64,000 nucleotides of DNA. It comes from Clostridia bacterium (GTDB taxonomy: Bacteria; Bacillota; Clostridia; Oscillospirales; CAG-272). The DNA is taken from the NCBI GenBank assembly GCA_017453365.1, contig JAFTKH010000006.1, forward strand, positions 6,321 through 70,320, read 5' to 3'. Each line of letters begins with the position of its first letter. Positions within the stretch are counted from its first letter, which is position 1. The notes below the pieces were generated by a model. It was given only the letters and a program-made list of their open reading frames with translations. It searched no databases and was not told where the DNA came from. Positions 44,477-59,688 of this stretch are shown here, piece after piece. The translations under genes were made by a program, and so were the position numbers.

Positions 44477-44941
44477 ATGGATATATACTCGGAAAAGGGT
44501 AAAAAAAGACTTATAAAACGGTACACTCCGAAAACAAAGCTTTTTAAAACCTCGATTTTAGCTTTTATTTTCGGCGGGACTATTTGCGCGCTCGGCGAAG
44601 CTCTGCGTATTCTCTTCGTAAACCTCGGTCTCGAGGACAAGCTCGCCGTTACACTCGTAAGCTTAAGCTTCGTCGCCATAGCCTCGGTGCTTACGGTTAT
44701 AGGTCTGTTTGACAGAATTGCACGGCACGCGGGAGCGGGAACGCTCGTCCCGATAACAGGCTTTTCAAACTCTGTGACAAGCGAGGCTATGGACTCGGCA
44801 AGCGAGGGCTACGTGCTCGGCGTCGGCTCAAAAATATTCACGGTAGCAGGACCGGTTCTCCTTTACGGAACGGCGGCGGGAGTAGTCTACGGTATTGTTT
44901 ATTTCATAGCGAAGCTTATAGAAGGGGGTGCGGTCAGATGA
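44477..44941 (+). CDS. spoVAC: Stage V sporulation protein AC
   Basis: ...FIFGGTICALGEAL..., and gene order AC-AD-AE. ATG at 44477 preceded by GGGAG. Confidence 0.9.
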   Translation: MDIYSEKGKKRLIKRYTPKTKLFKTSILAFIFGGTICALGEALRILFVNLGLEDKLAVTLVSLSFVAIASVLTVIGLFDRIARHAGAGTLVPITGFSNSVTSEAMDSASEGYVLGVGSKIFTVAGPVLLYGTAAGVVYGIVYFIAKLIEGGAVR

Positions 44942-45993
44942 GAGTAAGAAGGCTGTCACGCCCGCCGAGATTTGTATCGTGGGCATCGGTCGGCGGCTAC
45001 GAGGAGTCCCGCGGACCTCTTGGGGAGAAGCTGGATTTTGTAGACAAGACAGATACCTTCGGGCAAAAGACCTGGGAGCTCGCCGAGGGAGAAATGGGCA
45101 GATGTGCTCTCAATATGGCGCTGACGAAGGCAGGTCTCTCTCACGACAGACTCGAGCTTCTTGTCGCGGGTGACCTTCAAAATCAGTGTGTGGCAAGCTC
45201 TCTTGGCGCGGGCAGCTTCGGTATTCCATTTCTCGGTGTATACGGTGCGTGCTCTACCTGCACGGAGTCACTCCTCATACTCTCCGTTATGTTAAGCGAG
45301 GGCTGCGCAACGCTCGGAGCGGCGGCAACGACGAGTCACAACTCTGCGGCAGAGCGGCAATTCAGAACACCTGTCGAGTACGGTGCTCAAAGAGCCCCCT
45401 CGGCACAGTGGACGGCGACGGCAGGCGGTGCTTTTATTCTGTCATCCGACTACGGTATTATCTCCTGCGAGCGAAAAGGCTCGGTCGAGCTCTCCGAGGT
45501 CGCCGTCGGAAAAATAATCGACGGAGCTACCGCCGATGGCTCAAATATGGGTGGGGCTATGGCCTTCGCCGCAGCAGATACAATTCTCTCGTATTTCGAA
45601 GAAACGGGAAACGACCCCGCTATGTTTGACCATATCGTTACGGGAGACCTCGGACGCGTCGGCTCGGATATCCTGCGTCACATTCTCGGAGAGAAGCTAC
45701 CTAAGGCTGTGTCAAGACATACCGACTGCGGTCTTCTTCTTTACGACTCGGAAATACAGGACGTTCACTCCGGAGCATCGGGGTGCGGAACTTCAGCATC
45801 CGTTCTAGCCGCGCACTTTCTCCCCGCCCTTGAGCGCGGCGACCTCTCCGACATTCTCTTTCTTTCAACAGGAGCACTTATGTCACCGTCAAGCGTATTG
45901 CAGGGCAGAAACATTTCGGCTGTAGCACCGCTTATAAGGCTCACGCATAGGGATAACGAAAAAACGGAAAGAGAGGAACCTTCAAATGAATGA
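44938..45993 (+). CDS. spoVAD: Stage V sporulation protein AD
   Basis: Thiolase-like fold motifs (SVGGYEESRGPLG, GACST). ATGA overlap with spoVAC. Confidence 0.9.
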   Translation: MRVRRLSRPPRFVSWASVGGYEESRGPLGEKLDFVDKTDTFGQKTWELAEGEMGRCALNMALTKAGLSHDRLELLVAGDLQNQCVASSLGAGSFGIPFLGVYGACSTCTESLLILSVMLSEGCATLGAAATTSHNSAAERQFRTPVEYGAQRAPSAQWTATAGGAFILSSDYGIISCERKGSVELSEVAVGKIIDGATADGSNMGGAMAFAAADTILSYFEETGNDPAMFDHIVTGDLGRVGSDILRHILGEKLPKAVSRHTDCGLLLYDSEIQDVHSGASGCGTSASVLAAHFLPALERGDLSDILFLSTGALMSPSSVLQGRNISAVAPLIRLTHRDNEKTEREEPSNE

Positions 45994-46357
45994 TATAACC
46001 GCAATTCTTCTCGCCGCACTCGGCGGTGGTATACTCTGCGTAATAGCGCAGCTTCTGCTCGACCTGACGAGTCTCACCCCTGCGCGTATTCTCGTCGGCT
46101 ACGTAGTGCTCGGGGTATTTCTCTATGCCGTCGGAATATACGACCCCCTCTTTGAAATTTTCGGTGAGGGTGTGTCTCTTCCGCTCATCGGTTTCGGCGC
46201 CGTAATAGGAAGAGGTGTCAGAGAAGCAATAATCGAAAGTGGGGCTATAGGTATAGTCACAGGCGGACTCACCGCTTCTGCCGCGGGGATAACGGTTGCT
46301 CTGCTTTTCGGCCTTTTAGCCTCTCTTATCACCAAAGGAAAGCCAAAAAGACTGTAA
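45986..46357 (+). CDS. spoVAEB: Stage V sporulation protein AE (AEB-type)
   Basis: 123-aa polytopic membrane protein that overlaps the spoVAD end. Confidence 0.85.
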   Translation: MNDITAILLAALGGGILCVIAQLLLDLTSLTPARILVGYVVLGVFLYAVGIYDPLFEIFGEGVSLPLIGFGAVIGRGVREAIIESGAIGIVTGGLTASAAGITVALLFGLLASLITKGKPKRL

Positions 46358-46422
46358 AACAGCCTTTTTTTCAGTGGAAAGTTTGATTTACAAAAATCTT
46401 TTGGCTTTTCGCGCGTGCGTAC

Positions 46423-46451
46423 TTGATTTTTAAATATTTTTATGGTATACT
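46423..46451 (+). promoter_or_regulatory. Candidate dnaA promoter (extended -10)
   Basis: TTGATT (46423-46428), 17-nt spacer ending in TGg, TATACT (46446-46451). Confidence 0.55.
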
Positions 46452-46539
46452 ATTGATAAATGTTGTAATTATATTCGGATGATATAGATTCGGGGCGCTT
46501 GTCGCCCCGAGCAGCACTCGAGAAAGGACGGATGAGAGA

Positions 46540-48063
46540 ATGCTTGATTTTTCGGACATAAACTTTTCAGACCTCGAATATTCGGATTTTGACCTACCCG
46601 GTATTAACGAGCTTATAATGCCTGAACTGAAGTCGAGAGTAAACACACTCTCCTCTATATTCGAATTTTGGTTCGGGGGGCTGCGCCTTATATACCTCTC
46701 GGATAAAAAAGCTATATTCCAAACTCCGACAAATTTAAGAAAGAACATTCTGAACAACAAGCATATTCCCTTGATACGCGAGGTTCTCGAGGAAATTACC
46801 GCCTGTCAGGTGGAGGTGGTTCTCTGTTCTCTCCCCGAGCTTCGCGCTATGGCGGCTGAGGACCCGAGAATAAACAAGCTTATATATATAGACGACGAGG
46901 CTGTTAAAGAAGAGGCACAAAAGGAGCGCCGCATTACCGACTACATAAATTCTTCTCCCGAGAAAGAGATAGAGAAGCCCGTGGAAAAGGAGAAAATCGA
47001 CAGTGACGAGGATACCGATACAAAGGACTCGCCCACGGTTAAAAAATCGACGCTCGAGGAATATACCTTCGATAATTTCGTCGAGGGCTCGTCGAACAAA
47101 TTTGCCCGAGCCGCCTGCTATGCGGTTGCAAGAGAGCCAAACTCCTACAACCCCCTTTTCATATACGGTCATTCGGGACTCGGAAAAACCCATCTGCTCT
47201 ATGCGGTCATAAACTATATGAGGAAAAATCATCCGCACCTTAAGATAGTATATAAGAGGTGCGAGACCTTCCTCGATGAGCTTATAAAGGCAATAAAAAG
47301 CGGAAGCACCGCAACGTTTAAGGAAAAATATCGCTCGGCTGACGTTCTGCTCATCGACGACGTTCAATTTCTCGCGGGAAAGGAGCAGACGCAGGAGGAG
47401 TTCTTCCATACCTTCTCTGTTCTCTACGAGAGTGACAGGCAGATAATACTCACCTCGGACAGGCCCCCGAAGGAAATAAAGCCTCTTGAGGACAGACTTC
47501 GAACCAGATTTGAGGGCGGACTCCTCGCAGACGTTCAGCCCCCGTCCTTCGAGCTGCGCCTCGCAATAATAAAGAAAAAAGCCGACACTATGGGGCTCTC
47601 TATCTCCAACGAGATAATCGAGTATATGGCGGAAAGGCTTCAGAACAATATAAGGCAAATAGAAGGAGTTCTCAAGCGTATCCACGCTATATATTCTCTC
47701 ACGAGTGCCGAGGTCACACGTGAGAAGGTTGATGAGGTTATCTCTATAATCGATCCCGGAAACATTCCCACAGACACACTGATAGAGCGTATACTTTTCG
47801 CAGTCGGCCGTTCCTTCGGCGTATCCCCGGAGGATATGAAGTCGAAGAAGCGCACGGATAACATTGCCTCGGCTCGTCATGCCGCAATATACATAATTAA
47901 GCAGCTAACGGAGCTTACGCTTAAGGAGATAGGAGCGGTCTTTGACCGAGACCACGCGACGGTCATCTCCTCAATTGAGAAAGCGGAGAAAAATATGAAG
48001 ACCGTCAACAACTATGAGGCGGAAATAGAACGCCTTATGAAGGAAATTCGCGGCGGAGCGTAA
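46540..48063 (+). CDS. dnaA: Chromosomal replication initiator protein DnaA
   Basis: AAA+ Walker A GHSGLGKTHLL, Walker B LLIDDVQFL, and domain IV ...FDRDHATVISS. 507 aa with a long acidic linker. The start could alternatively be M27 (46618). Confidence 0.95.
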   Translation: MLDFSDINFSDLEYSDFDLPGINELIMPELKSRVNTLSSIFEFWFGGLRLIYLSDKKAIFQTPTNLRKNILNNKHIPLIREVLEEITACQVEVVLCSLPELRAMAAEDPRINKLIYIDDEAVKEEAQKERRITDYINSSPEKEIEKPVEKEKIDSDEDTDTKDSPTVKKSTLEEYTFDNFVEGSSNKFARAACYAVAREPNSYNPLFIYGHSGLGKTHLLYAVINYMRKNHPHLKIVYKRCETFLDELIKAIKSGSTATFKEKYRSADVLLIDDVQFLAGKEQTQEEFFHTFSVLYESDRQIILTSDRPPKEIKPLEDRLRTRFEGGLLADVQPPSFELRLAIIKKKADTMGLSISNEIIEYMAERLQNNIRQIEGVLKRIHAIYSLTSAEVTREKVDEVISIIDPGNIPTDTLIERILFAVGRSFGVSPEDMKSKKRTDNIASARHAAIYIIKQLTELTLKEIGAVFDRDHATVISSIEKAEKNMKTVNNYEAEIERLMKEIRGGA

Positions 48064-48339
48064 AAATTTTCAACATTTTAATGTTTGAAAGTTGAAAACT
48101 CCGTGTTCGTAAGATGTTCGTAAGATGTTGAAAAACCTGTTGAAAGCTTCCAACATTTTCTCCACACCCGTGCTATCAAGAAATTGTTGAAACTTTTTGG
48201 GAGAAATTCCTCTCCCGGCCTTGAAATTTTCGGTTTTCAACATTTTCAACACTACTAATACAACAACGACAACCGATAAATACATTTATTAATTCATCTC
48301 CCTCCGGGAGAAAAAGTGACAAGGAGAGTTTGACAAGTT
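48064..48339. other. oriC: Probable oriC (dnaA-dnaN spacer): 9-mer repeat array, triplet tract and an A+T-rich stretch
   Basis: Exact TTTTCAACA at 48067, 48234 and 48243, and its complement at 48126. One-mismatch copies at 48090, 48138 and 48185. One near-canonical DnaA box, TTCTCCACA, at 48158-48166. NAN triplets at 48250-48273, then an AT-rich stretch. Confidence 0.7.
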
Positions 48340-49500
48340 ATGAAATTCACAGTTTCGAAATCAGAGCTTATGCGTGTACTTACTCCCGCTATGGGAAGCG
48401 TATCCAATAAAAATACCATAACCGCTATCGAGGGAGTGCTTATCGAAACTCTCGATGAAGGTAAGGTAAGAATATCTACCTATGATATGAATAAGGGATT
48501 CAGAGCTACCGTTACCCCGACGTCTATTGAGCGTGACGGAAGGTTTATAATAAATGCGCAAAGGCTTTATCAAACCGTGCGCGTGCTTCCTGACGAGGAT
48601 ATTACCTTTAACATCGACGACCGTCTTTCCTGTGAAATATCCGCCGGTAAGGCTTCCTTCTCTATGTTTGCTCTGCACGGCGAGGATTTTCCAAATCTCC
48701 CCGACCTAGTTACCGAGCGCGGCTTCACCGTTTCTGCGGAAATTCTCCGCAAGATGATATCGAAGGTCGTTCACTCTATAGCAGAGGCTGACACAAGACC
48801 CATGCTCTGCGGTGCCTTTATGAAGGTTACAAGCGGACTTCTCGAGGTTGTGTCCTGTGACAGCTACCGACTTTCAAAGTGCCGTATGGCCTGCGATATC
48901 GGAGCACTGTCCTCTGACGGCGAGCTCGAATATTCCTTTATTGTTCCGGGACACGCACTCGGCGAGCTTATGAAGATACTCGCTGACGGAGACGACGAGA
49001 TGTGTCAGTTCTACCTTTCGAGAAAGCATGCTATTATAAATAAAGGAAACGTTGTATTCTTCACAAGGCTTATTGACAGCGATTACATTGACTATAACAG
49101 AATTATACCTCGCGATAACGATATACACGTAACCGTAGACAGGGAGAGGCTTCTCTCTGGGCTTGAGCGTGCTAATATTATTGCCGAGGAAAAAATACAG
49201 GGAAGCGGCAGAAGCTACGTAAAGCTTTCTGTTGAAAGACATTACCTCGACCTTACCTCGACGTCGGTCAACGGTGCTGTTACCGACGAGATGGACTGTA
49301 TTCACGACGGTGCAGATATAGAAATAGGCTTCAACTGCCGATATCTTATCGATGCGGTTAAGGTGGCAGAGGGCGAGGAAATACTCATTAAGCTCAAGAG
49401 CGCAAATCAGGCTATAACAATAGAGCCGAAGGAGCGCGACGAGAAATTCGATTATTTCTATATGATACTCCCCGTGCGAATGAATGAGTCGGCAAGCTGA
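48340..49500 (+). CDS. dnaN: DNA polymerase III beta sliding clamp
   Basis: MKFTVSKSEL...; three-domain size (386 aa); position after dnaA; RBS AAGGAGAG. Confidence 0.95.
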   Translation: MKFTVSKSELMRVLTPAMGSVSNKNTITAIEGVLIETLDEGKVRISTYDMNKGFRATVTPTSIERDGRFIINAQRLYQTVRVLPDEDITFNIDDRLSCEISAGKASFSMFALHGEDFPNLPDLVTERGFTVSAEILRKMISKVVHSIAEADTRPMLCGAFMKVTSGLLEVVSCDSYRLSKCRMACDIGALSSDGELEYSFIVPGHALGELMKILADGDDEMCQFYLSRKHAIINKGNVVFFTRLIDSDYIDYNRIIPRDNDIHVTVDRERLLSGLERANIIAEEKIQGSGRSYVKLSVERHYLDLTSTSVNGAVTDEMDCIHDGADIEIGFNCRYLIDAVKVAEGEEILIKLKSANQAITIEPKERDEKFDYFYMILPVRMNESAS

Positions 49501-49506
49501 CCTCTT

Positions 49507-50613
49507 ATGAAAATAAGAAAATTTCGCGCCGAGGGCTTCCGCAACATAGATTTATGTGAGATAGATTTTTCTGACGGTACAAATCTCATAGTGGGCGGAA
49601 ACGCAGAGGGGAAGACCAACGTTATTGAGGGAATATACCTCTTTTCGCGCGGCAGGTCGTTTCGTACGGCAGATGACCGAGAGCTTATAGGCTTCGGTCA
49701 CGACGGCTTCCGTATCTCGGTAGAGTATGAGGACGAGGGAGGCACATCCACACTAGAATACGCTCTTTACGGAAAAGCGCGTAGGAGAATGAAGAATGGG
49801 TACAAGCTTTCCTCTGCTGCAGAGATGCTCGGCAACTTTCGCTCCGTGCTCTTTTTTCCCGACGACTTAAGGCTTGTTAAGGGGAATCCAGAGGAGAGGC
49901 GCTCGTTTTTGAACGTTGCTCTTTCACAAACCTCACCGCTTTACGTTTCAGACTATTCAAGATTTAAGACTGCGCTTGAAAACAGAAATGCAATTTTAAA
50001 AAATGCCGCTCGCGGACTCTATTTTGATGAAGGAGAGCTTATCGCGTGGAGCGACGTTATGGCTGAATATTCGGCGAATATATATATTGAAAGAAAAAAA
50101 TACACAGAAGAGCTCTCGCGCTTCGCAAAATCTCATCTTCTCGAGCTTTCGGGCGGGGCGGAAGAATTAGAGCTTGCTTATAAATCCGATATCGAAAGCG
50201 GAACTGCGGACAGGTCCGAGGCTGTAGCCGAATATAAAGAGGTGTACAGACGGAGTCTTGAGCGCGAGCGTGCGGCTGGGACTTCGCTCTTCGGACCGCA
50301 ACGCGATGATATCACGGTTCTTCTCTCGGGACGCGAGGCGAGGAGCTTCGCATCGCAGGGGCAGCAGAGGTCGATAGTCCTTGGTATGAAGCTCGGAGAG
50401 GGAGAGATAATTCACGAAAGGTTTGGGGAGTACCCGGTATTTCTCTTCGACGACGTTCTCTCGGAGCTCGATGACGAGCGTCGCACCTACCTTGCCGGCA
50501 AGACGGACGATATGCAGACCGTTATAACTTCCTGCGAGGGCGGAGAGAGATATCTCAAGAATATAAACGTTATAAGTGCCAAGGGAGGAACGTATGTATC
50601 TTCACATAGGTAA
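49507..50613 (+). CDS. recF: DNA replication/repair protein RecF
   Basis: FRN...Walker A GGNAEGKTN, SMC-like signature SQGQQRS, Walker B LFDDVLSELD. Confidence 0.93.
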   Translation: MKIRKFRAEGFRNIDLCEIDFSDGTNLIVGGNAEGKTNVIEGIYLFSRGRSFRTADDRELIGFGHDGFRISVEYEDEGGTSTLEYALYGKARRRMKNGYKLSSAAEMLGNFRSVLFFPDDLRLVKGNPEERRSFLNVALSQTSPLYVSDYSRFKTALENRNAILKNAARGLYFDEGELIAWSDVMAEYSANIYIERKKYTEELSRFAKSHLLELSGGAEELELAYKSDIESGTADRSEAVAEYKEVYRRSLERERAAGTSLFGPQRDDITVLLSGREARSFASQGQQRSIVLGMKLGEGEIIHERFGEYPVFLFDDVLSELDDERRTYLAGKTDDMQTVITSCEGGERYLKNINVISAKGGTYVSSHR

Positions 50614-50866: not shown

Positions 50867-52804
<1,938 letters not shown>

Positions 52805-59577: not shown

Positions 59578-59688
59578 TATATTGTAAATGAAAAATAAAC
59601 TTTCAACAAAGTGAGTTGAAAATACTTGCAGTTTGTGTTAAAATCATTCCGTAGGTGGCTTTTGCCCCTTTTATTTATTGGAGGCTTT

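Follow-up and report, generated by a model that had tools for sequence, protein, structure and literature searches.

The dnaA locus analyzed here raises the question of whether a chromosomal initiator with altered DNA-reading residues also reads an altered DnaA box. The locus lies in a 64-kb stretch of DNA (64,000 nucleotides), referred to below as the window. The dnaA ORF matched the profiles of the DnaA ATPase domain PF00308 (3.4e-66) and the HTH domain PF08299 (2.1e-22), and HMMER aligned the protein to B. subtilis DnaA (8btg) at 1.8e-96. A database record with the identical protein names it DnaA, from a 'Clostridia bacterium' MAG. The dnaA-dnaN-recF-gyrB neighbourhood is present in the window, and this synteny was kept in every relative looked up. 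Directly upstream of dnaA, spoVAD and spoVAE (44938-46357) replace the rnpA-rpmH genes found in E. coli and B. subtilis, as they do in every locus of the clade that we looked up (L104-L116). The genes and the domain IV residues at issue, numbered on the 507-aa ORF, are as follows.

46540..48063, forward strand: dnaA, 507 aa, with the AAA+ domain at residues 173-330 and the domain IV HTH at residues 415-481 (ORF and profile matches)
47851..47853, forward strand: R438, the equivalent of E. coli R399 (minor-groove arginine), kept here and Lys in about 30 clade relatives (alignment)
47923..47925, forward strand: K462, the equivalent of E. coli P423; of the 120 relatives listed, 119 have Lys here and one has Gln (alignment)
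47944..47955, forward strand: D469-R470-D471-H472, a loop one residue shorter than GGRDH (GG430/431 reduced to D469), in which D471 (D433) and H472 (H434) are kept (alignment)
47956..47958, forward strand: A473, the equivalent of E. coli T435, which is S, A or T in the clade; Ala accompanies near-exclusive A6 boxes, that is, boxes with A at position 6 (alignment)
47968..47970, forward strand: S477, the equivalent of E. coli H439, which is S, F, A or Y in the clade and never His (alignment)
48340..49500, forward strand: dnaN (beta clamp); downstream of it, recF starts at 49507 and gyrB at 50873

An earlier note on this DNA had aligned domain IV by eye. We set the residue register by HMMER against 8btg (alignment line 'ltlkeigavf.drdhatvissiek') and by a MAFFT alignment that included E. 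coli domain IV together with 80 further DnaAs. Both gave the register of the note, with P423, T435 and H439 replaced by K462, A473 and S477, GG reduced to D, and R399, D433 and H434 conserved; its coordinates and residue numbers were right as well. In an AF2 model of domain IV (pLDDT 85.6) the recognition helix begins at H472 and K462 starts the preceding helix. The best fold matches of the model were the DnaA DNA-binding domains 3pvp, 8btg and 1j1v; the model and the fold search support the fold only, and DNA contacts lie outside their reach. The agreement of two independent aligners, the fit of the model to DnaA DNA-binding domains and the conserved synteny refute an artefact, be it an error of register in the alignment or a DnaA-like paralogue from outside the chromosome, and nothing was found in favour of either. 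Judged from its sequence and gene neighbourhood, the window protein is a true DnaA, the initiator of the chromosome in an uncultured Clostridia bacterium.

Three papers that cite Fujikawa 2003 (PMC2533591, PMC7561715, PMC5043019) give R399, P423, D433, H434, T435 and H439 as the base-specific contacts, in accord with the residues named in the earlier note. Three of these six are kept in the window protein (R438, D471 and H472) and three are changed (K462, A473 and S477). It shares with E. coli and B. subtilis domain IV (1J1V, 8BTG) the fold, the HTH register and the residues R399, D433 and H434, and differs from them in P423K, T435A, H439S and the shorter loop. According to PMC5742627, the helix 434-451 reads the TnCACA portion of the box and R399 reads TTA.

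These substitutions proved not to be special to the window genome. All 120 relatives listed (at least 62% identity) were without Pro423 and without His439; position 435 was mostly S, otherwise A or T, 434 was H or Y and 399 was R or K. The AAA+ domains of the clade were 82-100% identical to that of the window when full-length proteins were compared. We also drew 138 alignable DnaA clusters from the 150 nearest 50%-identity representatives, and only eight of the 138 carried the canonical R-P-D-H-T-H set. Position 423 was P in 50 and K in 23 of these clusters, 435 was S in 69, T in 60 and A in nine, and 439 was H in 44, S in 36, Y in 27 and N in 21. On these alignments, substitutions at contact sites are ordinary among Clostridia-like DnaAs; the full contact set marks the canonical reading head, not membership of the DnaA family. 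PMC7561715 holds that the base-contact residues are conserved across all Firmicutes and that TTWTNCACA can be assumed; the residues aligned here, in the clade and in its sequence neighbours, contradict such conservation.

The dnaA-dnaN spacer of the window is 276 bp long and holds about 11 boxes, counting degenerate sites. Its features are given below.

48067..48075, forward strand: DnaA box TTTTCAACA, the first box past the dnaA stop codon (motif match)
48090..48098, reverse strand: DnaA box TTTTCAACT (motif match)
48104..48146, reverse strand: four boxes in the same orientation at 11-12 bp spacing, TTACGAACA, TTACGAACA, TTTTCAACA and CTTTCAACA (motif match)
48158..48166, forward strand: TTCTCCACA, the sole box of the spacer with C at position 6 (canonical type) (motif match)
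48185..48193, reverse strand: DnaA box GTTTCAACA (motif match)
48234..48251, forward strand: tandem pair TTTTCAACA TTTTCAACA, adjoining the trio run and placed like boxes 6/7 of B. subtilis (motif match and alignment)
48252..48274, forward strand: DnaA-trio-like run CTA CTA ATA CAA CAA CGA CAA CC, aligned in all clade relatives (alignment)
48275..48300, no strand assigned: AT-rich stretch (GATAAATACATTTATTAATTCATC) upstream of dnaN, presumed to act as the unwinding element (sequence)

The 9-mer TTTTCAACA occurs 34 times in the 64-kb window at no more than one mismatch (16.2 expected), and seven of the 34 sites fall within 48067-48251. Exact TTWTCMACA was found seven times in the 64 kb, four of them in the dnaA-dnaN spacer, and exact TTWTCCACA was found nowhere in the window. 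The consensus of the spacer boxes is (T/c)TTTCAACA, with A6 in 10 of the 11 boxes in place of the canonical C. The suggestion of an origin built from an altered 9-mer was borne out by this TTTTCAACA cluster. At 48104-48125 an exact 11-bp tandem duplication (two copies of TGTTCGTAAGA) yields two identical degenerate boxes TTACGAACA, which are in phase with the next two.

The layout of the basal unwinding system, in which trinucleotide repeats and then an AT-rich stretch directly follow two adjacent boxes of the same orientation, is present in the window and conserved across 20 aligned relatives. These tandem boxes, trio run and AT-rich stretch are features shared with E. coli and B. subtilis, as is a 9-mer box with T2, T4, A7, C8 and A9 nearly invariant. 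Richardson et al. are said to have given the trio consensus in 2016 as 3'-GAT-5', which is CTA on the top strand. Only the first two window trios are CTA; the others are CAA, CGA or ATA, a C-N-A pattern. Across the clade the run is typically CTA CAA CAA CAA TTA CAA, again C-N-A rather than repeated CTA, and it is the middle base, usually the best conserved, that varies. We found no boxes upstream of dnaA (spacer 46358-46539), where E. coli and B. subtilis differ, and the second cluster of the bipartite Firmicutes origin (rnpA-rpmH-dnaA-dnaN) was not found; the origin looks monopartite, with a single cluster in the dnaA-dnaN spacer. GC skew is clearly positive from about 48 kb onward, in a window of about 50% GC. 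From the box cluster, the conserved architecture and the turn of the GC skew near 48 kb, we take the dnaA-dnaN spacer to be the real origin. Elsewhere in the window, two clade-type boxes in inverted orientation (CTTTCAACA and AGTTGAAAA, 5 bp apart) lie at 59600-59622 in a short gap between two ORFs, and may mark a DnaA-regulated promoter.

We then compared the origin with those of relatives. Besides the window, 20 distinct in-clade loci were obtained: three from a scan of genome contigs with the whole protein, five from a metagenome scan with domain IV and the remaining 12 from exact-protein look-ups, all of which share spoVAD-spoVAE-dnaA-dnaN-recF. The whole-protein scan was dominated by Bacilli through the conserved peptide KEQTQEEF, and the Bacilli loci were used as canonical controls. 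A set of freshwater metagenome contigs (L090-L101), recovered through the domain IV pattern, carries 144-aa ORFs, measured from the first in-frame start codon, that end in a DnaA domain IV-like HTH (TDLTLKEIG...HHTT(I/V)LHS).

The spacers of the clade could be aligned well, and their boxes fall at corresponding offsets. From the seven columns homologous to the strong boxes of the window, in 17 loci and with no motif filter, we built a position weight matrix of 119 boxes. Its counts from position 1 to position 9 were T99, T113, T82/A29, T109, C103, A83/C29/G5/T2, A113, C112 and A102, which gives a clade box of TT(T/a)TC(A/c)ACA. T1, T2, W3 and T4 of the canonical box are present, as are A7, C8 and A9, and C5 is conserved; position 6, where C is the minority base, alone falls outside the E. 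coli consensus TTWTNCACA. The box change is confined to one base pair (C to A). Below, boxes with A at position 6 (such as TTTTCAACA) are called A6 and those with C there (such as TTTTCCACA) C6.

The ratio of A6 to C6 boxes was 61:23 in 18 clade loci versus 67:558 in 64 canonical P-D-H-T-H Bacillota loci (TTNTNxACA boxes), an odds ratio of 22 (Fisher 4e-33, kinship ignored); the clade is essentially one evolutionary event, plus locus L005. Within the clade the ratio was 22:2 with Ala435, 13:3 with Tyr434 and 26:18 with His434 and Ser/Thr435. Ala435 differed from His434 with Ser/Thr435 at p=0.005 (Fisher), and loci with Ala435 or Tyr434, which pooled to 35:5 and had nearly lost their C6 boxes, differed from the same group at p=0.0026 (per-locus Mann-Whitney); both tests ignore kinship. 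These ratios, observed directly across relatives, suggest a clade-wide relaxation or shift in the reading of position 6, with A6 near fixation in the Ala435 lineage of the window. We give this reading a probability of about 0.55.

A stricter proposal is that K462, A473 and S477 jointly switch recognition from TTATCCACA to TTTTCAACA. The 22:2 ratio of the Ala435 loci agrees with it, and so does L005, a distant DnaA (AAA+ domain 57% identical to that of the window) that has the same K/A/S residues and likewise uses TTTTCAACA boxes. However, K423 and S439 also occur with mixed origins and with the C6-rich origin of L003, T at position 3 is already inside the canonical consensus, and variants with Ser435, Phe439 or Thr435 use A6 boxes too, among them L107, whose boxes are mostly A6 although Thr435 is retained. 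The last of these points likewise rules out replacement of Thr435 by Ala as a necessity for A6. We consider the joint switch improbable, and a relaxed or shifted reading of position 6 appears to fit the sequences better. Of the co-variation between initiator and box that the earlier note had proposed, the part that stands is at the level of the clade and of the Ala435/Tyr434 loci as against the 26:18 group; a one-to-one re-coding by three residues does not stand. Carriers of the same substitutions with canonical boxes, which would weigh against the proposal, were found in part: L003 (K423/S435/S439) uses mainly TTTTCCACA and TTATCCACA, and most origins of the clade mix A6 and C6 boxes. The contact residues of L003 (K,K,D,H,S,S) are those of L081 and L108, yet its C6:A6 ratio is 6:1, so the six residues alone do not set the preference.

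Two further candidate causes of the A6 boxes were rejected. The short loop is shared by L009, which has P-D-H-T-H residues and TTGTCCACA/TTATCCACA boxes, and an AT bias is at odds with the GC content of the window. In other families of Clostridia, the DnaAs of a Ruminococcus MAG (L008) and a Marvinbryantia MAG (L004) have E or S at 423 and Y439. The dnaA-flanking spacer of the former is rich in TTTTCCACC and ATTCCACC and that of the latter mixes ATCCACA, TTCAACA and TTCACCA, which suggests further box diversity in those families.

The main rival of a relaxed reading of position 6 is drift with unchanged specificity. On this account DnaA would still bind TTWTCCACA best, ATP-DnaA would occupy the A6 boxes cooperatively as weaker sites, and the K/A/S residues would be neutral or serve affinity and not base choice. 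The C6 boxes of L003, despite its K/S/S contacts, speak for such drift, as do the wide variation of positions 423, 435 and 439 among the nearest DnaA clusters and the A6 boxes that make up about 11% even of canonical loci. Many clade origins mix A6 and C6 boxes. In one subclade of eight loci, the boxes of the tandem pair (window 48234-48251; offsets 171 and 180 from the dnaA stop) are conserved as TTTTCCACA (C6) first and TTATCAACA (A6) second, unlike the window, in which both are TTTTCAACA; the C6 kept at offset 171 speaks for drift as well. The conserved C6 at 171 and A6 at 180 could represent two functional or affinity classes, with C6 perhaps still the optimum.

The oriC of Thermoanaerobacter tengcongensis, with the consensus TTATCNACA (PMC1888806), also favours drift. 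It is likewise a Clostridia-class origin with a variable position 6, and has among its boxes TTATCAACA sites that are bound by DnaA pairwise; A6 boxes are therefore possible in an origin of this class. Unlike those of the window, its boxes are situated by rpmH, upstream of dnaA; the comparison concerns the origins. Against drift, the window and its closest relatives (L104, L115 and L105) have essentially no C6 box, the tandem pair by the trio run included. The lack of any exact TTWTCCACA in the 64 kb and the odds ratio over canonical loci point the same way, as does the substitution of D433 that accompanies G6 (described below), which suggests that head and box change together in this group. 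We regard drift with an unchanged optimum as rather unlikely, though clearly likelier than a joint switch by three residues.

Three DnaAs nested in the clade, with AAA+ domains 82-85% identical to that of the window, have Asp433 replaced: L001 (S433), L002 (N433) and L085 (Q423, N433 and Y439). In their homologous boxes G occupied position 6 in 8 of 21 cases, versus 5 of 119 elsewhere (p=5.5e-5). L069, an unrelated Oscillospiraceae DnaA with N433 and Y439, has GACAG six times in a 230 bp spacer, a count reached in 0 of 2000 shuffles. We examined the dnaA-dnaN spacers of L001 and L002 and positions 3765-3990 of L085 and 5147-5380 of L069. Where D433 is replaced by N or S (L085 and L069 also having Y439, and Q or G at 423), (T/C)GACA(G) boxes replace TCAACA/TCCACA, and the box adjacent to the trios is ACTGACAG or GATTGACAG. 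In these origins position 6 may thus be read as G, which would be a third state of specificity.

How a relaxed or shifted reading of position 6 might arise can be outlined from the residues. We infer both which residue reads position 6 and a real change in affinity. We take His439 to face position 6, as it reportedly does in the 1J1V structure and as the covariation described above suggests. The clade has lost Pro423 and His439, and often Thr435, and has kept Arg/Lys399, Asp433 and His/Tyr434. Loss of the His439 imidazole together with Pro423, and in the lineage of the window also of the Thr435 hydroxyl, would remove the contacts that demand C:G at position 6. C and A both expose an amino group in the major groove, with which the retained Asp471, as acceptor, could still form a hydrogen bond. 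Where Asp433 is kept, A and C, the bases with such a group, account for 112 of the 119 bases at position 6, and G appears with Asn or Ser at 433; we therefore propose that Asp471 may contact the top-strand base at position 6 (and 7). A secondary source (PMC8235120) assigns D433 to base pair 7, not 6. His439, with Thr435, would normally read the partner G, and Ser with Ala would drop the demand for G, their small side chains making room for the methyl group that T brings to the opposite strand. The clade DnaA would then read TTWTC(A/C)ACA, and its origins would drift to A6, nearly fixed in the Ala435 sub-lineage of the window. The clade may even form a natural series of reading heads, with C read by His439 (outgroups), A or C by Ser/Phe439 with Asp433, A only with Ala435/Tyr434 and G with Asn/Ser433; this arrangement, drawn from the sequences, is tentative, and we consider it doubtful.

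Lineage-specific boxes tied to DnaA variation have precedents. Jaworski et al. 2016 (PMC5043019) attributed the lineage-specific box TCATTCACN of Epsilonproteobacteria to variation at the helix-5 residues 435, 438 and 439; P423 varies there too. The idea of a lineage-specific box tied to helix-5 variation is the same here; there, however, the box has T at position 5, H439 is mostly Lys and footprinting lends support, whereas in the window the altered position is 6, Ser stands at 439 and the evidence comes from sequence comparison. Thermotoga maritima DnaA resembles the window protein in that contact residues diverge along with the box and in its short loop before the recognition helix (PMC7561715). 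Its divergence is far greater, with only the arginine kept and a different 12-mer box, in contrast to the single position changed here. Our literature search turned up no publication about this clade or about TTTTCAACA boxes, and nothing specific emerged from literal searches, whether for TTTTCAACA/TTATCAACA or for the DnaA boxes of Oscillospiraceae, Ruminococcaceae and related families.

The window does not present a new kind of system, since both the protein and the architecture of the origin are known, as is the idea that boxes can be lineage-specific. If binding assays confirm the altered reading, the clade would offer a tractable residue-base pair system for the co-evolution of an essential initiator with its many binding sites, and origin prediction with the E. 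coli box would be under-calling origins in uncultured gut Clostridia. The series of reading heads, if true, would give DnaA domain IV a small recognition code with which initiator-origin pairs could be re-programmed, and the standard origin finders, being based on TTATCCACA, would be mis-scoring many gut Clostridia.
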